DNA of 64,000 nt from an uncultured candidate division Zixibacteria bacterium (GCA_963801605.1 CAWDFP010000006.1:1216001-1280000); one strand, 5' to 3'. Counted from the first letter of the stretch, positions 37,088 through 58,308 are shown. The notes: generated from the sequence alone by a model not told the origin. Numbers and translations are program-made.

Positions 37088-38032
37088 ATGTGCCGAAACA
37101 GATATTGTATGGTTACGTCTATGCCAGAGAGCCTGCAGCGCTACCTCGATTACCTCAGTCTCGAGAGAGGCTTAGCTAATATGAGTCTCGAATCCTATCG
37201 CAACGATATTGAGAAGTTTCGTCATTATCTCGAAGAGCGTAAGCTTGCTCCGGATAAGCTGCGGCAAACGGACTTGACCGGCTTTCTCGAATACTTGCGT
37301 AAGAGCGGCATGGCGCCCAGTTCTATTGCCAGAAATTTGAGCTCCATTAAGGGATTTTTTCGCTTCTTAAAAAAATCCGGCGAAACTAACAGCAACCCGG
37401 CCGAGTCAATAACCGGCCCCAAGCTTTTCAGGCCGCATCCCGGAGCACTTTCGGTCGATGATGTCTTTAAGCTTTTGGATGGCGCCAGGCTGGCTCGTAA
37501 AAGCGATAAGACCAAAAAATGTATGGTGCTTCGGGACCAGGCGCTTTTGGAATTCCTCTACGGCACCGGGGCCAGAGTATCCGAGGCCGCCAATGCTAAG
37601 AAGGCCGACCTTTATTCCGAGATGGGACTTGTCAGGCTCTTCGGCAAAGGGAGCAAGGAGCGAGTGGTTCCAATGGGCAAAGTGGCCTGGGCGGCGGTGA
37701 AAGAATATCTCGATGGTTGCAGGCCCAAGCTGGTCGGAGCTCTAAGCGCCGATTACCTGTTTCTGAATAATCGCGGCGGGCAACTCTCTCGTATGGGGAT
37801 TTGGAAGATACTCAATAAATATGTGACCCTGGCAGGCATCACAAAAAATGTCAGTCCGCATACGCTCAGGCATAGCTTTGCAACTCATCTTTTGGCTGGT
37901 GGGGCGGATTTAATTGCAGTTCAGGAGCTTTTGGGTCACGCTGATATCACTACAACCGAAATATACACACATCTCGATAACGATTTCTTAATCTCTGAGC
38001 ATCGGGAGTTCCATCCCAGGGAAAAATGGTAA
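37088..38032 (+). CDS. xerD: Site-specific tyrosine recombinase XerD
   Basis: ERGLA, TGARVSE, GKGSKER, HTLRHSFATH, LGH and catalytic Y in TTEIYTH; likely start ATG 37121. Confidence 0.88.
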   Translation: MCRNRYCMVTSMPESLQRYLDYLSLERGLANMSLESYRNDIEKFRHYLEERKLAPDKLRQTDLTGFLEYLRKSGMAPSSIARNLSSIKGFFRFLKKSGETNSNPAESITGPKLFRPHPGALSVDDVFKLLDGARLARKSDKTKKCMVLRDQALLEFLYGTGARVSEAANAKKADLYSEMGLVRLFGKGSKERVVPMGKVAWAAVKEYLDGCRPKLVGALSADYLFLNNRGGQLSRMGIWKILNKYVTLAGITKNVSPHTLRHSFATHLLAGGADLIAVQELLGHADITTTEIYTHLDNDFLISEHREFHPREKW

Positions 38033-39006
38033 CGCTTTTAGAAAGAGAAGTTGGCCACGAGGCCAGGGTACAATCGCATAAATTACATTGCGGTTTATGC
38101 CAGCGCAATGTTGCCATCGAGGCAATGTTGACTGCTTCGCTTTCCGGTTACGAGGTCGTCATCCATCACTTCGATACCATCAGCGCTCTCTATGAACAGA
38201 ACCAGCGTTCCTATATCGATCTGATCGTCTTTGCGGCCGGCGAGGACCCCGAATGGTTGATGCCCTTAGTGCGCGAGATAAAGGCTCACTCAATTCTGCA
38301 ATTTATCCCCATACTGATCTTTGCGCCGGCGGCGGGGAAAAATTATGTTGTTGAGGCCTACCGCTTGGGAGTCGAGGAGTGCATTACCGGTTTCTGGGAT
38401 CATCAAATCGAGGCTGCCAAGATTGAGATGCTGATATTCCGTTCGCGGCGCGATCTGAGCGTCAACCCATCCTCGAAACTGCCCGGCCCCAACGCCATCG
38501 AATATGAGATCGATAAACGCCTCCAGATCGGTGATAAGTTCGCGGTCTGCTATGGCGATCTCGATAATTTTAAAGCTTATAACGATTATTACGGTTATGT
38601 TTATGGCGATAAAATGATTCGGATAACGTCGCTGATCATCCGCAACGTTGTACAGGATTTAACGCCGCAGGGATTTGTGGGGCATATCGGCGGTGACGAT
38701 TTTATCTGGATTGTGCCGGTGGAGATGGTGGACCCCATCTGCAAAAACATAATCGCTACCTTCGATCGCATGGTGCCGTTTCGCTACGCCGAAACTGATC
38801 GAAATCGCGGCTGGATCGAGGTTGCCAACCGTCGCGACGTGGTGGAACGATTCCCGATCATGAGCATCTCTATCGCTGTGATAATCAATCAGAAGCGGAT
38901 GTTCAAACATCCCGGCGAGATGAGCCACATGATGGCCGATCTCAAGAAATACACCAAATCCCTGCCCGGCTCCAACTACATGGTTGAGCGCCGCAAAAAA
39001 TATTAA
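38026..39006 (+). CDS. Diguanylate cyclase with degenerate receiver domain
   Basis: DLDNFKAYND, GD, GHIGGDDF; N-terminal REC-like fold lacks the phospho-Asp (DLIVFA). Confidence 0.82.
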   Translation: MVTLLEREVGHEARVQSHKLHCGLCQRNVAIEAMLTASLSGYEVVIHHFDTISALYEQNQRSYIDLIVFAAGEDPEWLMPLVREIKAHSILQFIPILIFAPAAGKNYVVEAYRLGVEECITGFWDHQIEAAKIEMLIFRSRRDLSVNPSSKLPGPNAIEYEIDKRLQIGDKFAVCYGDLDNFKAYNDYYGYVYGDKMIRITSLIIRNVVQDLTPQGFVGHIGGDDFIWIVPVEMVDPICKNIIATFDRMVPFRYAETDRNRGWIEVANRRDVVERFPIMSISIAVIINQKRMFKHPGEMSHMMADLKKYTKSLPGSNYMVERRKKY

Positions 39007-39034: not shown

Positions 39035-39283
39035 GTTGGTCAGGTCGCCTGCGACCTGACTCTTTTTGATGGCGCATTTTATGCGCGCGAAAAAGTAGCC
39101 GGGGGTCCCTGTGGTCCCCGGCTTATTTTTCATCTTTGGCTGTAGCATCAGGTCCCCGAACCTGATGCATAGGGTAGGTCGGGTTCCGGCGGTGGCATGC
39201 TTCCCGAGTCCCTTGGACGAGGAAAGCTTGTGCAGGGCTAAATGAAAATAAAAATGGCGCCAGGCCGTTTGACCTGACGCCAC
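39035..39283. repeat. Cluster of REP-like palindromes in convergent intergenic region
   Basis: Hairpins at 39035-39060, 39095-39123, 39142-39168, 39174-39207 (degenerate) and 39255-39283, headed by GTAG/GTTG/GTGG. Confidence 0.7.
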
Positions 39284-39303
39284 TTGTAACTCGTAACTCT
39301 CTC

Positions 39304-40552
39304 TTACATCCCGTACATCTCGATAATCTCTTTTTTGCCTTTGCCAAGAATATTGTATTTGGCGCCGACTTTCGTGAAGGCGGCAATAGCCAGATCGAGA
39401 TGATGACTTCTCATGCGCCGCTGAAAGCTGGGTGCGAATCCTGGCCGCGCCTTTGGGCACCACCGGGAAGAAGAATCCTACCGCGTAAATCCCTTCGGCG
39501 TAAAGATCGCGGGCGAAATCCTGAGCCAGCTTGGCGTTGTAGAGCATTACCGGCACGATCGGGCTGTCGCCTTCTTTAAGATCGAATCCGGCTTTCTCCA
39601 AAGCGCTTCGCCAATATTTTGTATTCCATTCCAGCTTATCGCGACGTTCGGTGGTTTTGGAAATCAGGTCCAGCACCCGAATCGCTCCCGCCACTATCAC
39701 CGGCGCTACAGTATTGGAGAATAGATACGGTCTGGCGCGTTGACGGCACAGCTCCACCAACTCGCGACGACCGCTGACACAGCCACCCGATGCGCCGCCG
39801 AGCGCCTTGCCCAATGTGGTTGTGATGATATCGATCTTGCCGACTACGCCGCAATGCTCGTGCGTACCGCGACCGGTCTTGCCGATAAAGCCCGATGAGT
39901 GCGATTCATCGACAAATACCATCGAATCATATTTTTCGGCCAACGCCACAATCTCGTCAAGCTTGGCCAGGTCGCCATCCATTGAGAAAACGCCATCGGT
40001 GATAATCATCCGGAAACGCTTATCCTGATGTTCCTGAAGCTTTTCCTCGAGATGCCCCATATCGGAATGCTTATAGGTGTCCTGCATCGCTTTGCAGAGA
40101 CGCATACCATCGACAATCGAGGCATGCACCAGGCGATCGGCTATCATGATATCTTTATCTGTTAAAATTGCCTCGAAAACGCCGGCGTTGGCATCCATAC
40201 AGGATGGAAACAGCAGGGTGTCCTCGGTGCCGAGGAAGGTTGTCAGCTTGCTTTCCAGTTGACGGTGAATATCCTGGGTGCCGCAGATAAAACGTACCGA
40301 TGACATTCCGTAGCCGCGGGAATCAAGTCCCTCATGCGCCGCTTTGATAACCTCGGGATGGCTCGATAGCCCGAGATAATTATTAGCGCACATATTGATT
40401 ACTTTTTTAAGCTCGGCGCCGTTGGGAAATTCCACCACAATATCGGCGTTCTGAGGAGCGTGAATATAGCGCTCCTCCTTGAAAATCCCGGCATCCTTAA
40501 TACCACGAATTTCAGTTTGATATATTTCGCGGGATTTATCACTGTAAGCCAC
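39304..40552 (-). CDS. kbl: Kbl-like alpha-oxoamine synthase (glycine C-acetyltransferase paralog) in the ACP operon; apparent +1 frameshift near 39406
   Basis: [32 protein letters not shown] Lys in TLGKALGG; removing one T restores AHEKHHLDLAIAAF...MYGM and a stop at 39304. Confidence 0.85.
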
Positions 40553-40611
40553 GCTTACCTCCTAACATCAACATTTTACGAATTGATCAAATTCTACGCC
40601 AGGTTCGCAAG

Positions 40612-40869
40612 TTATGCTTTTGTGAATCGATTTACCAAATCCACAATTTTGTTGACCGAATCGAATGCTTCCGGCGATGCATCGGCATCCGGTATTGTGA
40701 TAGTGTATTTCCGTTCCAGGAACCGCTTGAGCGAAACCATCGAAAAGGAATCGACGATACCGCCTGAAATGAGCGGGGTGTTCTCGTCCACAGTACGGTC
40801 ATCATCTTCTTCCAGATATTCACGTTTGACGTAGTCCAGTACGACCTTTTTCATCTCATCCATACTCAT
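40612..40869 (-). CDS. Stand-alone acyl carrier protein
   Basis: 85 aa, acidic, GIVDSF phosphopantetheine attachment motif, C-terminal F.SV..I. Confidence 0.9.
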   Translation of the reverse strand: MSMDEMKKVVLDYVKREYLEEDDDRTVDENTPLISGGIVDSFSMVSLKRFLERKYTITIPDADASPEAFDSVNKIVDLVNRFTKA

Positions 40870-40971
40870 TCATCCTTTCAGAAATATTGTTAATATTATT
40901 ATTTTTCAATTTCCTTATCACTTACCGGATATTTTCATCCGATAAATGTATGACCCGCGACTCATGACTCC

Positions 40972-42678
40972 CTAATCATTTTCAAGAGTCGAAATATCGC
41001 CGATCGGCTCGCCCCATTCCTGGGCGCGTAATACTCGACGCATAATCTTGCCGCTCCTGGTTTTGGGCAGCGATTTTACAAATTCGATCTCCTGCGGCAT
41101 TGCCAATGGCGACAGCCTCTTTCTGATAAAATTCATGATCTCGAGTTCCAGATCGTCACCGGGTTCAAAACCGGGCTTTACTGCTACAAATGCCTTAACC
41201 ACTTCCATATTGACCGGATCAGGCTTGCCCACGGCTGCCGATTCCGCTACCGCCGGATGTTCCAACAGCGCCGATTCTATCTCGAACGGCCCTACCAGGT
41301 GACCGCCGGTGTTGATAACATCATCATCGCGGCCGACAAACCAGTAATAACCCTCTGCGTCGATACTGGCTCTGTCGCCGCACAAATACCAACCATTCTT
41401 GAATTTATTTTTATATATCTCTTCGTTTTTCCAATAAGTGCGGAACATCGAGGGCCACCCCGGACGAAGCGCTATCAGGCCAACCGTGCCGACATTATTG
41501 ATCGGCTCGAATGTCTTGGGATTGACCACCGTGGCGGTTATGCCGGGGAATGGTTTGCCCATCGAACCGGGTTTAATCGGCATACCGGGATAGTTGGTAA
41601 TAACTATTGAACCGGTTTCGGTTTGCCAGAATGTGTCGTGGAACATCTTCCCAAACGCCTCTTTCGACCAGATGACCGCCTCGGCATTTAGAGGCTCGCC
41701 TACGCTGCAGAGATGACGAAGACAGCTTAGGTCAAACTTTCTGACCAGATCAGTGCCGTCACGCATTAAAAGCCTGATGGCCGTGGGGGCTGAATACCAG
41801 ACCGTGATTTTATGTTTTTGAATGAAGGCGTACCATTTCTCGGAACTGAAACCCGCATCGAGCACTGCCTGCGTTACGCCGTTTACCCAGGGCCCGATAA
41901 TTCCATAGGATGTGCCCGTTACCCAGCCGGGATCGGCATTACACCAGTAGATATCATCGTCTTGTAGATCGAGTACCCATTTGGATGTTAGGTATTGCGA
42001 GATAAGCGAATAATGCACATGTTGGGCGCCCTTTGGCTGGCCGGTAGTCCCCGATGTGTAATGCAGCACTGACGGCGTCTCCGCTACTGAGGGGTAAGCA
42101 TCCCAATTTTCCACGCGAGGCTCGGTTTCCATATTGAAAGCGACCTCACGTTCGCGAAGCAGCGAGGAATCATCTGCATCAACTACAATGATATGCCGAA
42201 TTTCGGGTAGCTGCTTTAGTATTTTGCGCACTTTCGCGACATGCTTTTTCTGAGTCAGTATTGCTGATGTTTTAGCGTTATCAAGTCTCGTAAACAGAGA
42301 TTCATCGCCGAATGCCGAAAATAACGGTTGGGCAATTCCGCCCATCTTGAGGATTCCCAAAAACGAAATATAAAGCTCCGGTACTCTATCCATGAAAATG
42401 CAGATGCGCTCGCCCGGCTTGAGACCCAATTTGGTGAAGAAGCTGGCAAAAGTATTCGAGAGTAGGCGAAGATCGTTGTAGGTAAATGTTTTATTATTGC
42501 CAAGATGATCTTCCCAAATCATCGCTTTCTTGGCGCCTTTGCCCTGGTTGCAGATACGATCGCTGCAGTACCATCCGATATTTATTTTATCGCCTTTTTT
42601 GTATCCAAGCTCTTTTTCGGAAATTGACCAATCAAATCCCTTTAATCTCTGTTCATACGATTCAATGTTTGACATCAC
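40972..42678 (-). CDS. acsA: Acetyl-CoA synthetase-like adenylating enzyme (possible acetate--ACP ligase)
   Basis: YTSGTTGQPKG, ADPGWVTG, SVGEP, WQTETG, GRDDD, LPKTRSGKIMRR. Confidence 0.85.
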   Translation of the reverse strand: MMSNIESYEQRLKGFDWSISEKELGYKKGDKINIGWYCSDRICNQGKGAKKAMIWEDHLGNNKTFTYNDLRLLSNTFASFFTKLGLKPGERICIFMDRVPELYISFLGILKMGGIAQPLFSAFGDESLFTRLDNAKTSAILTQKKHVAKVRKILKQLPEIRHIIVVDADDSSLLREREVAFNMETEPRVENWDAYPSVAETPSVLHYTSGTTGQPKGAQHVHYSLISQYLTSKWVLDLQDDDIYWCNADPGWVTGTSYGIIGPWVNGVTQAVLDAGFSSEKWYAFIQKHKITVWYSAPTAIRLLMRDGTDLVRKFDLSCLRHLCSVGEPLNAEAVIWSKEAFGKMFHDTFWQTETGSIVITNYPGMPIKPGSMGKPFPGITATVVNPKTFEPINNVGTVGLIALRPGWPSMFRTYWKNEEIYKNKFKNGWYLCGDRASIDAEGYYWFVGRDDDVINTGGHLVGPFEIESALLEHPAVAESAAVGKPDPVNMEVVKAFVAVKPGFEPGDDLELEIMNFIRKRLSPLAMPQEIEFVKSLPKTRSGKIMRRVLRAQEWGEPIGDISTLEND

Positions 42679-42702
42679 TTTTCCCTCTAATCATGTACGA
42701 AT

Positions 42703-43080
42703 TTATGATTCCAATATCACATTTGCCGAGGCCCATTCTGCGGTATGCGACAAAGAGACGAAGATATTTTTTATCCCCAGCCGCTTGGCCGTTTCCCGCA
42801 CCCCACCGCATAGTATAATAAACGGTTGACCGTTTTCCCTGTTTTGTATATCGATTTCAAGCCAGGACATTTCCGGCGTCAAACCGGTTGAAAGAGCCTT
42901 GAGTAACGCTTCCTTGGCGGCAAACCTGGCTGCAAAATGACGTTCGGGATAGCGCTTGCATTCGCAGTAAGATATTTCTCCCTGCGTAAATATACTGTCT
43001 TTGATGCCGGAACCGTTGCGATCAAGCTCGCGACGCATTCTGGCGACTTCAAAAATATCATTGCCAATCCCGACGATCAT
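42703..43080 (-). CDS. acpS: Holo-ACP synthase (phosphopantetheinyl transferase)
   Basis: GIGNDI, F...E, AARFAAKEALLKAL, G.P, SLSH. Confidence 0.93.
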   Translation of the reverse strand: MIVGIGNDIFEVARMRRELDRNGSGIKDSIFTQGEISYCECKRYPERHFAARFAAKEALLKALSTGLTPEMSWLEIDIQNRENGQPFIILCGGVRETAKRLGIKNIFVSLSHTAEWASANVILES

Positions 43081-43108
43081 CTCATTGTATTACCGAGTCT
43101 CTGTATTG

Positions 43109-43146
43109 TATGCGTCAGGATGGAAAGCTTCCAACATCCAGACGCC
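43109..43146. repeat. REP-like palindrome inside the operon
   Basis: GCGTCAGGATG-loop-CATCCAGACGC; 32/38 identical to 50596-50633. Confidence 0.65.
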
Positions 43147-43159
43147 TAAACTCACAGCT

Positions 43160-44273
43160 CTACTTGCGCTTCATCGCTTCGTCCAATTCCTTTTTATCCG
43201 GGAACAGAACTATCTTACCGGCTTTTCTTTCCTTAAACGGCACCAGTAACTTGTCGAATCCAGCCGCAAAATCCTGAAGCGCCATTTTGTGTGTTACCAC
43301 CGGGGAAACATCAAGCCGTTTTGGATGCCAATAAATTCCTGACTCGATACCAGGTATCGAACATCTTACGTCCGTTGATACCATGAATCTGGCATCCTTT
43401 GAAAACGATACTGTTATTGTAATCGATTGTCATTGTAGGTTCAGATAACACCCCAAACGCTGAAAAGCGTCCGCCCTTGCGAAGCATCCCGAAACCTTCC
43501 TGGATCGCCTGCTGGACTCCTGCCATTTCCACAACAATATCAGCCCCATAGCCGAAGGTATGATCCTTGACATAGCTTATGCGATCAATCTTGGCGTCAT
43601 CAGCGTAAAGGATATGATCGGCTCCCATCCGACGGCCTAATTCGAGATTAAACGGGCTCATTCCAACCATAAAGATATTAGTGATGCCAACCGCGCGTGC
43701 CACACCCACCGCAAATAGCCCGATTGGGCCATCGCCTAAAATAACCATTGATTTGCCGGCCACGTCATTATCCTCGCCTAATACAGCGTAAGTGGCGTTA
43801 CCCAATGGTTCCTGAATCGTGGCATATTCCGGCGGGATCGATTTGTCATTCACCCAGCAAACCACCTCCGGGATAGCCACATACTCCGCGAAAACGCCGT
43901 CGCGATCCACACCCAGGATTTGCATTCTCTCACCCAGATGCATCTGGCCTAACAGCGCCTGCAAATCACCGGAATAGGGGATATGTGTTTCGGCGGAGAT
44001 GTAATCTCCAATCGCGATCTTTTTGACGAATTTGCCTTTATCGACAACTACGCCCGCCACTTCATGGCCGAGTATCTGAGGCAGGCCCTTGGCCCCGATC
44101 CTCTTGTCCGACCAATCATCCCATTTATAAATATGAACATCAGTTCCGCAAATGGATGTTGCGCTGACTTTTACCAGCACCTCATCATCACCTATAACTG
44201 GCAGCGGTACTTCCAGAAGCTCCGCACCTTTTTCCGCTTTGGTTTTCACCACGGCCATCATTTTTTCGGCCAT
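43160..44273 (-). CDS. tdh: Threonine 3-dehydrogenase-like MDR zinc oxidoreductase (divergent); apparent +1 frameshift near 43320
   Basis: ICGTD, WDDW, GHE, AETHI, GDGPIG, HGINGRKMFDTW; removing one A joins it to KRLDVSPVVTH...GKIVLFP. Confidence 0.8.
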
Positions 44274-57095: not shown

Positions 57096-58308
57096 TTATA
57101 TCACTCCGTATTTTTTACCCACTCTCCTGAAGGCTTCAATCGCCATATCAAGTTGCTCTGTTGTATGAGCTGCGGAAATTTGCACCCTGATCCGCGATTG
57201 CCCCTTCGGTACCACCGGATACGAGAACCCGATCACATAAATGCCTTCAGCTAACATATCGCGTGCAAAATCCTGTGCCAGTTTGGCGTCATTAGGGAAT
57301 CGTCCAAACAAAATTGGCACTATGGGATGAATACCCGGCTTTATCTCAAACCCGGCGTTAGAAATCTCTTTACGGAAATATTGAGTGTTACGTTCCAGGC
57401 GGTCGCGAAGCTCGGTGCTTTCCCAGAGCATATTGATTGCCTCGATTCCGGCGGCTACTATCATTGGCGGCATCGTATTGGAAAACAGATACGGCCGGGC
57501 TTTTTGACGAAGCATATCTATTATCTCTTTACGACCGGATACACAACCGCCGCTGGCTCCGCCCAACGCCTTACCAAGAGTAGTGGTAATAATATCGATC
57601 TTGCCCATTACACCGCAATGCTCGATACTTCCGCGACCGGTACGCCCCATAAAACCGGTGGCGTGGGAATCATCTACCATTGTTAATGCCCCGTGCCGTT
57701 TTGCTATTTCTACGATTTGATCCAGCTTGGCAATATCGCCATCCATTGAAAAAACGCCATCGGTGGCGATCAGCTTAATCTTGGCCCCGCCTTTTTCGGC
57801 TTCCTCAAGCTGCAGTTCAAGGTCTTTCATGTCGCTATGCTCGTAGCGGAAGCGTTCGGCTTTGCAGAGCCTGATGCCATCTATAATCGAGGCGTGATTG
57901 AGTGCATCCGAGATAATCGCATCCTGACCGCTGAGGATAGCCTCGAATAATCCTCCATTAGCGTCAAAACAGGATGAAAACAGGATCGTGTCGGCCGTGC
58001 CCAGAAATTCGCTGATCGTATCCTCGAGCTTTTTATGCAGGTCCTGCGTTCCGCAAATGAACCTTACCGATGACAACCCAAAACCATGCGTATCGAGCGC
58101 CCGCTTGGCAGCCGTCTATTAACCTGGGATGATTGCCTAACCCCAGGTAGTTGTTGGCGCACATATTGATAACCTCGCGGCCCGGCGCCACCGTTATTTT
58201 GGCTCCTTGCGGGCTGGTGATTACCCGTTCCTCTTTGAACAAACCTTGATTCCTGATGTCATTCAAAGTGGTGCTTAAATTATCGAGTTTTACAGTATCC
58301 ATATCCAA
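57096..58308 (-). CDS. kbl: 2-amino-3-ketobutyrate CoA ligase (canonical); apparent +1 frameshift near 58112
   Basis: [59 protein letters not shown]. Confidence 0.9.

Follow-up and report, generated by a model that had tools for sequence, protein, structure and literature searches.

In the AasR/AcpR/Spt system, the adenylating ligase AasR loads only its own acyl carrier protein (ACP), and the alpha-oxoamine synthase (AOS) Spt prefers acyl-ACP (PMC9386255). The AMP-forming ligase Acs1 of Syntrophus aciditrophicus makes ATP from acetyl-coenzyme A (acetyl-CoA) and needs more than about 0.2 mM pyrophosphate (PPi) (PMC4992975), and its ATP-forming bias is set by the CoA-loop residues G196 and T197 (PMC13404658). 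Here we analyze a five-gene operon in a 64,000-nucleotide stretch of DNA (the window) from a Zixibacteria genome that is estimated to be 87% complete (GCA_963801605.1, CAWDFP010000006.1:1216001-1280000); all coordinates are positions within this window unless a contig or locus is named. The operon encodes a threonine dehydrogenase-like protein (Tdh), an AcpS-type phosphopantetheinyl transferase, an AMP-forming acetate ligase, a stand-alone ACP, and Kbl2, a paralogue of glycine C-acetyltransferase (Kbl). We give roughly even chances to the reading in which it converts threonine to glycine and acetyl-ACP, and acetyl-ACP to acetate, with ATP formed from AMP and PPi.

The five genes are co-directional on the minus strand with intergenic gaps of 79, 24, 102 and 59 bases, and family profiles bear out the identities assigned to them in the original prediction. 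The conserved five-gene synteny that it proposed stands only in part: the fixed unit consists of three genes (ligase-ACP-Kbl2), not five. Of 201 host-phylum genomes, 80 encode the ligase, at 68-87% identity, and all 40 of these loci that were fetched, picked across families and for longer contigs, contain the trio, whereas acpS is present in only 22 of them and the full TDH-acpS-ligase-ACP-kbl2 order in 19. The trio is found in about 2300 metagenome stretches according to the search tool's estimate. Among the best 80 of 579 metagenomic ACP loci, of which 66 are informative and many lie on short contigs, the ligase is directly upstream of the ACP in 62 of 66 and Kbl2 is directly downstream in 65 of 66. 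Across 241 sampled Acidobacteriota genomes, the ligase (at least 63% identity) occurs in 20, of which 17 have an intact trio. The module ligase is absent from the five genomes of other phyla that were searched, and the class-level set around genome G201 comprised three genomes. Neighbors of the module include genes for an oligopeptide transporter, tryptophanase, phosphoenolpyruvate carboxykinase and phosphofructokinase.

The chemistry of the trio is predicted to be that of a C2 acyl group and glycine, not of a long-chain lipid, because the ligase has an acetate pocket and Kbl2 keeps its characteristic active-site residues. The 567-residue ligase (positions 40972-42675, minus strand), which belongs to an ACP-associated clade, scores 761 bits against NF003313 (cut-off 729). 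Its V253, T254, V326, W351 and K544 align with V310, T311, V386, W414 and K609 of E. coli Acs, the first four of which we take to form the acetate pocket and the last to be the catalytic lysine. This match suggests a C2-sized acyl substrate held in an acetate-type pocket. Kbl2 (positions 39304-40552, minus strand; 415 amino acids once one extra base is allowed for) exceeds the cut-offs of both TIGR01822 (562 bits, cut-off 493) and NF005394 (561 bits, cut-off 460). Solved Kbls (E = 1e-140) match it much better than decarboxylating AOS enzymes do, and Spt profiles give it at most 307 bits against cut-offs of 500-670. The pyridoxal phosphate (PLP) lysine K249, the stacking histidine H143, the carboxylate arginine R371, and V86 are invariant in 30 of 30 sequences. 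V86 was matched to ThAOS V79 by motif reading, without a pairwise alignment; a valine that limits the amino-acid side chain is conserved in KBL enzymes (PMC11906848). Both the C2 acyl group and the glycine partner named in the original prediction thus agree with the family scores and pocket residues, which also led us to reject a sphingolipid-like or long-chain product. An Spt-like gene lies elsewhere in the genome (C6:420659).

Kbl2 can be told apart from 34 ordinary Kbls by M119, V142 (DRLVHAS for DALNHAS), R303 and a 13-residue C-terminal extension. The separate canonical kbl that had been noted before is indeed present (kbl1, positions 57096-58302, minus strand, outside the operon, and frameshifted near 58100-58110). 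It is 60% identical to Kbl2, has no adjoining tdh, and is presumed to be the CoA-using counterpart of Kbl2. In tdh-kbl operons, the position of kbl is taken by Kbl2. It is the sole Kbl over the cut-off in five of five near-complete module genomes, and a single Kbl match is found in 55 of all 80 module genomes (in six loci of family f3, a further, more divergent Kbl-like gene falls under the threshold). That Kbl2 often replaces ordinary kbl is in line with a catabolic role.

The ACP gene (positions 40612-40863, minus strand) encodes an acidic 83-residue protein with a GIVDSF motif, the Ser39 codon of which lies at 40749-40747. A Pfam search with this ACP gave no match and NCBIfam carrier-protein matches are weak (best E = 2e-17), but a structural model of the ACP from a relative (locus L009) has the helical fold of carrier proteins, with helix II opening on Asp-Ser (predicted local distance difference test score, pLDDT, 85). 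In Foldseek its best match is PigG (template modeling score 0.81-0.83), and the closest folds are carriers of the PigG/PltL/DltC type. The serine is invariant in 40 of 40 loci, and ACPs of the module from different phyla share 60-85% identity. The 125-residue AcpS (positions 42703-43080, minus strand; 96 bits against TIGR00516, cut-off 59.8) is the second copy in the genome, 39% identical to the other at C6:1120244, and its family membership suggests that it attaches phosphopantetheine to Ser39. A docking prediction for the Kbl2 dimer and ACP of L009 scores 0.58, compared with 0.00 for the best of three controls, with contact agreement of at least 86% between runs and a partner pLDDT of at least 83. 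The docking mark is reached by 116 of 157 solved pairs and 2 of 215 mismatched pairs, and at scores of 0.60 or lower by 18 of 157 solved pairs and both of the mismatches, so that the model lends weak support to docking of the ACP on Kbl2. By inference, the acetyl group is very probably carried on the ACP instead of CoA, which upholds the carrier-bound acetyl group of the original prediction.

The relatives of the ligase suggest a direction for the pathway. Its closest solved relative is a 572-residue CoA-using AcsA (9g79, E = 1e-169). Among the elements that contact CoA, the loop bearing R191/R194 is absent, Arg526 of motif A8 is replaced by Leu461, and Arg584 is kept as R519; a loop of the R191/R194 type is likewise absent from CoA-using Bacillales AcsA. 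In a tree of 32 sequences with ultrafast bootstrap support, four Bacillales AcsA fall outside, and the module ligases are sister (bootstrap 100) to ligases encoded in an acsA-pdhA-pdhB-pdhC-acp operon, where pdh denotes pyruvate dehydrogenase (PDH). The two ACP-linked clades share S121 and G124 in the pantetheine loop and H460 and L461 in the A8 loop, and all four Bacillales AcsA differ at these positions. The PDH-linked operon was seen in eight of the eight non-Bacillales ligase loci inspected, and all three of the E1-alpha proteins tested exceed the PDH cut-off. The pyruvate dehydrogenase reaction runs one way, and the ligase would therefore be the sole encoded outlet for acetyl-ACP in this cassette, which implies the reaction acetyl-ACP + AMP + PPi to acetate + ATP. 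The cassette may accordingly be an acetate and ATP former. An ACP-dependent ligase clade that is plugged into two acetyl donors, Kbl and PDH E1/E2, would amount to carrier-insulated substrate-level phosphorylation, a generalization in which we have somewhat less than even confidence. The cassette is found in cultured bacteria without an E3 (for example, L282:4935-10164), universal-stress-protein genes adjoin it in three of the eight loci, and no relevant paper on it was found in the open-access literature.

The partner dehydrogenase ties the module to threonine. The tdh gene (positions 43160-44273, minus strand) encodes a zinc-type L-threonine 3-dehydrogenase-like protein of the medium-chain dehydrogenase/reductase (MDR) family. 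Its 320-residue frameshifted piece falls below the cut-offs of TIGR00692 (334 bits, cut-off 458) and NF003808 (325 bits, cut-off 380), but no family fits it better than threonine dehydrogenase (TDH), and its top solved relatives are without exception L-threonine 3-dehydrogenases (E = 1e-86). The catalytic-zinc motifs (ICGTD and GHE) and QEPLGN are kept, the four structural-zinc cysteines are lost, and Gly204 stands where solved Tdhs carry Glu or Asp. A TDH is present in 77 of 80 module genomes versus 78 of 121 genomes without the module. It lies within 4 kb of the module in 48 of the 80, being zinc-type in 21 and of the unrelated short-chain dehydrogenase/reductase (SDR) type in 27, and the two types co-occur in only 1 of 155 genomes. 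Because two unrelated TDH families fill one slot, the module is linked to threonine and 2-amino-3-oxobutanoate, and the coupling to threonine dehydrogenase that had been proposed for the operon therefore holds. A cross-phylum clade of Tdh-like proteins (window 43160-44273; L001-L031, L080) lacks the structural-zinc cysteines, has Gly at the NAD-selecting position and is usually found beside kbl. Among the 32 loci closest to the Tdh of the window, 19 are beside plain kbl, 5 are beside the module and 8 are beside neither. The zinc loss and Gly204 were consequently rejected as module markers, since they are traits of this clade that also occur beside plain kbl. That most members close to the Tdh of the window adjoin plain kbl also speaks against a fixed unit of five genes.

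In the favored reading, AcpS would convert the ACP to its phosphopantetheine form and Tdh would oxidize L-threonine to 2-amino-3-oxobutanoate, an assignment suggested by its family and by its replacement with an unrelated TDH. Kbl2 would then split 2-amino-3-oxobutanoate into glycine and acetyl-ACP, not acetyl-CoA, as synteny and the weak docking result suggest. Finally, the ligase would run in reverse, converting acetyl-ACP, AMP and PPi to acetate and ATP, for which the sister clade and the Syntrophus enzyme provide the rationale. Kept apart from the CoA pool by a private carrier, the thioester may allow all of the free energy released by threonine cleavage to drive the AMP/PPi reaction; it could rise as far as its donor pushes it, undrained by CoA enzymes. 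With standard values, the coupled sum comes to about -1 to -5 kJ/mol when threonine is the substrate and to -20 to -24 kJ/mol with pyruvate, while the equivalents with an ADP route are -15 and -33 kJ/mol. The sum for threonine would thus be near equilibrium, and with acetate high and PPi low these enzymes could run the other way. Catabolism with the ligase running backwards was a subsidiary alternative in the original prediction and now fits better than its headline of threonine synthesis, although synthesis remains a live rival because the coupled reaction is so close to equilibrium. This genome has a membrane pyrophosphatase (PPase); a family-I soluble PPase was not found, and family-II PPases were not searched. 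It also encodes a threonine-aldolase-like protein and two beta-eliminating lyases of 460-470 residues, the size of tryptophanase or tyrosine phenol-lyase (C7:251827 and C11:206627), which are consistent with amino-acid fermentation.

Several observations weigh against ATP-yielding threonine cleavage. The driving force computed for threonine is far below that of the PDH sister system (-1 to -5 versus -20 to -24 kJ/mol), and with acetate at 10 mM and PPi at 0.05 mM the balance on the same inputs tips toward synthesis by 17-21 kJ/mol. Soluble PPases are encoded by 24 of the 80 module genomes and by 31 of the 121 that lack the module (p = 0.52); for want of an association, they were rejected as a test of direction. 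The Syntrophus bias residues were set aside as such a test as well, since the loop that carries them in Acs1 is absent from the module ligase family and they are unreadable there. Two loci have a symporter resembling the acetate/monocarboxylate carriers ActP and MctC ahead of the module, and three are flanked by SatP. For E. coli ActP the Km is 5.4 uM (PMC7419537), and ActP-like symporters, being of a high-affinity type, suggest acetate uptake. The genome of the window also has a canonical Acs and an ADP-forming ligase-like gene (below the cut-off), and together with its second Kbl these would already cover catabolism; a second Kbl is kept in 25 of 80 module genomes, this one included. Zinc-type Tdhs have Gly at the cofactor-selecting position in 32 of 33 module-linked and 39 of 76 unlinked cases, and Gly204 could be compatible with NADPH and with reduction, whereas the cofactor Asp of SDR-type TDHs, which is usually NAD-selecting, is kept in 20 of 20 copies from the fetched loci. 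The only characterized ligase-ACP-AOS trio, AasR/AcpR/Spt, condenses (PMC9386255). In two loci (L171 of genome G021 and L176 of genome G181) the ACP and Kbl2 are present and no ligase was found in the genome, the gene order being tdh-(acpS)-acp-kbl2, and in genomes G380, G261 and G321 the ligase stands alone. Finally, nine sister Kbls that have no neighboring ACP share most of the Kbl2 signatures (M119, R303 and the C-terminal extension).

Several of these points favor the strongest rival, in which acetyl-ACP is made by the ligase at the expense of ATP and joined to glycine by Kbl2, after which TDH carries out a reduction to L-threonine. The operon would then supply threonine where thrABC is lacking, or act as a sink for acetate, glycine and NAD(P)H, and the private carrier would let ATP push a near-equilibrium reaction towards threonine. 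Tdh and Kbl can reportedly form threonine (attributed to Marcus and Dekker, 1993). The five loci with ActP-like or SatP transporters, the soluble PPase of 24 of the 80 module genomes, the second Kbl, Gly204, and the condensing precedent all fit, as does the biosynthetic gene content of this genome, in which no hom and no thrB over the cut-off were found at 87% completeness. Its thrC-like gene, over the TIGR00260 cut-off, lies in a cluster (L348, C6:71256-79912) with cysK-like, ssnA-like, preA-like and molybdenum-hydroxylase-like genes, and it was rejected as evidence of a threonine pathway in view of this context and of the missing hom and thrB. We nevertheless consider synthesis rather unlikely, in part because the PDH-linked sister clade of the ligase points the other way.

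The distribution of threonine biosynthesis genes also argues against synthesis. In the host phylum, hom is found in 5 of 80 module genomes versus 35 of 121 others (Fisher p = 5e-5, computed on kin that are not independent), and in family f3 the 20 module genomes and 21 hom genomes do not overlap. However, this anti-correlation is unrelated to threonine. Of the 40 hom loci, 20 were fetched; all 20 adjoin an aldehyde dehydrogenase gene, 19 a gene for an unknown protein of 410 amino acids, and none is a thr operon, so that hom was rejected as an indicator of the capacity to make threonine in this phylum. These loci form a recurrent Zixibacteria set (L151:2599-6692 and L152-L170) of a protein of about 410 residues (19 of 20), a cupin-like protein of about 119 residues (17 of 20), the hom-like gene and the aldehyde dehydrogenase (20 of 20 each), and the set is nearly exclusive with the ACP module. 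The ~410-residue protein has no Pfam or Protein Data Bank match, and its only Atlas matches are phage GP88-like clusters at 0.91; the set is possibly a route for homoserine catabolism. The phylum looks broadly auxotrophic, with hisD in 7 and ilvD in 1 of 201 genomes. Absent thr genes therefore say little there, and a phylum without histidine and branched-chain synthesis would be unlikely to keep a threonine route costing two ATP.

Acidobacteriota provide a fair comparison, although the 40 genomes without the module are simply the next in the sample, are not matched by lineage, and include one (G229) that is unpublished. In this phylum hom is present in 19 of 20 genomes with the module ligase versus 29 of 40 without it, and thrC over the cut-off in 11 of 20 versus 30 of 40. 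Nine thrC loci were fetched, and thrB over the cut-off lies beside thrC in seven. Among the 17 Acidobacteriota genomes with an intact trio, six have hom, thrB and thrC together. Because it coexists with these genes, the module is not, as a rule, a substitute for Hom, ThrB and ThrC. The original prediction had proposed such a bypass and suggested an anti-correlation with thrB and thrC as a check; the check yields none in Acidobacteriota, the hom pattern of the host phylum is uninformative, and the bypass does not hold as a rule.

A second rival, which we regard as improbable, holds that the ACP is not the obligatory partner of Kbl2: Kbl2, the ligase or both would also use CoA, and the ACP would buffer or regulate, or be a relic that came along with the ligase from the PDH-type cassette. 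It can draw on the CoA-using AcsA 9g79 as the nearest solved relative of the ligase, on the CoA-binding arginine kept as R519, on the two loci without a ligase, and on 3 of the 20 Acidobacteriota ligases, which have no adjoining ACP or Kbl. The nine ACP-less Kbls point the same way. Against it stand the position of the ACP between both enzymes in nearly every locus, the dedicated acpS in 22 of 40 loci, the identity of the ACP across phyla together with its invariant serine, and the S121, G124, H460 and L461 changes common to both ACP-linked ligase clades; the docking model, with its weak support for a Kbl2-ACP complex, would also be at odds with it. The sister Kbls (L172-L175, L179, L184, L185, L141 and L036) are 67-70% identical to Kbl2, have the same C-terminal tail, and are located behind Kbl2 or directly behind tdh without an ACP or ligase, so that they offer a natural control for ACP versus CoA use. 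In a FastTree phylogeny of Kbls (95 of 135 sequences), the separation of the module clade from this ACP-less sister has a support of only 0.39.

A third possibility is that condensation of acetyl-ACP with glycine yields a product other than threonine, namely 1-amino-2-propanol, a pyrazine or, if CO2 is lost, aminoacetone. Most alpha-oxoamine synthases do decarboxylate (PMC11906848), and a TDH lies beside the trio in the same orientation in only 1 of 20 Acidobacteriota and 3 of 80 metagenome loci, many of the contigs being short. A TDH-like gene is nonetheless found elsewhere in all five Acidobacteriota genomes tested (three zinc-type over the cut-off and two SDR-type, one of these at 39%). Although the Tdh of the window has lost its structural zinc, this is the clade trait that also occurs beside plain kbl. 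The match of Kbl2 to non-decarboxylating Kbls, the two unrelated threonine dehydrogenases in one slot, and the lack of recurring tailoring, export or cobamide genes around the module make such a product quite improbable.

That the operon is decaying, with tdh and kbl2 being true pseudogenes, is hardly credible: each has a one-base frameshift, but in both the conserved C terminus is still encoded after the shift, kbl1 and unrelated genes are broken likewise, and a same-genus Kbl2 is unbroken at 90% identity. The original prediction placed all five genes correctly without noting these lesions, which consist of one extra base at about 39406 in kbl2 and a shift at a run of four A (43319-43322) in tdh. 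Since the relatives' genes are intact, with a Kbl2 of 415 amino acids, and one-base frameshifts also occur in unrelated genes of the same assembly (C6:870557-872075, C6:1077850-1080292 and C10:20572-23077), both are probably assembly errors. Gene calls on this assembly are prone to split or truncate proteins for the same reason.

The operon may be closed by a candidate terminator, a hairpin of 15 pairs followed by a T run on the minus strand (positions 39285-39252) that begins 18 bases past the conserved kbl2 stop and was recognized by consensus match only. A promoter scan returned eight sites, a count no higher than in shuffled sequence. Converging on the operon is a gene (38026-39006) for a GGDEF-family protein with a GGDDF motif and, as judged by eye, a receiver-like N terminus; it overlaps a gene labeled XerD-like from its motifs (37088-38032). 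Opposed hairpins at 39038-39123 and 39252-39285 lie between the GGDEF-family gene and the operon.

The trio is common and goes under the housekeeping annotations acsA, ACP and kbl, and no paper on a ligase-ACP-Kbl2 module was found in the open-access literature. If the acetyl group does ride on the ACP, then a central-metabolic thioester reaction takes place outside the CoA pool, for which the precedent so far lies in lipid and natural-product synthesis. If the module is catabolic, then AMP and PPi would be recycled to ATP and about 10-14 kJ/mol more would be captured per threonine than by an ADP route, which would be important for energy-starved sediment fermenters. This would constitute an undescribed, CoA-free, energy-conserving route in many phyla, served by Kbl in anaerobic peptide fermenters and by PDH E1/E2 in cultured bacteria. 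If the module is synthetic instead, it would represent a naturally occurring way of making threonine from acetate and glycine with ATP as the driving force. The link to the acsA-pdhABC-acp cassette carries the question into cultured, tractable bacteria.

Of the known systems, Tdh-Kbl (E. coli kbl-tdh; Kbl structures 1fc4, 7bxp and 3tqx; Tdh structures 2d8a and 3gfb; SDR-type TDH structures 7ol1 and 2yy7) shares both enzyme families and the KBL-type valine with the module. The module differs in that genes for an acetate ligase, an ACP and, in many cases, AcpS separate tdh from kbl, and in that Kbl2 forms a separate clade of 415-residue proteins with changes next to the PLP-stacking histidine that make its use of CoA doubtful. 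The AasR-AcpR-Spt system of Caulobacter and other Rhodobacteria has the same combination of an adenylating ligase, a dedicated ACP and an alpha-oxoamine synthase (PMC9386255). However, the module has an acetate-sized pocket instead of a long-chain one, Kbl instead of Spt, a TDH partner and no lipid genes, and its reversible reaction probably runs the opposite way. Syntrophus Acs1 is likewise an AMP-forming ligase from a host with a membrane PPase, in which no soluble PPase was detected (PMC4992975). Acs1 is a canonical Acs that acts on acetyl-CoA and has the CoA loop with R199 and K202 (PMC13404658), whereas the module ligase is loopless and tied to an ACP, and is predicted to form ATP.

Bacillus-type AcsA (9g79, NF003313) resembles the module ligase in size, in its acetate pocket and in the missing R191 loop, but it is stand-alone and CoA-using, lies beside acuABC in three of four loci seen, and has FEAFM and SGER loops in place of FSAFG and GGHL. 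The acsA-pdhABC-acp cassette of Desulfotalea, Rhodococcus, Streptomyces, Ralstonia, Sinorhizobium, Methylocystis, Leisingera and Tropicibacter comes closer, with a sister ligase that has the same S121/G124/H460/L461 residues, a small acidic ACP in the operon and no other consumer of acetyl-ACP. There the acetyl donor would be PDH E1/E2, whereas here it would be Kbl, and the ACPs are only distantly alike. The module thus appears to work like a Tdh-Kbl pathway that is wired in the fashion of AasR/AcpR/Spt, and it is a member of neither system as defined.

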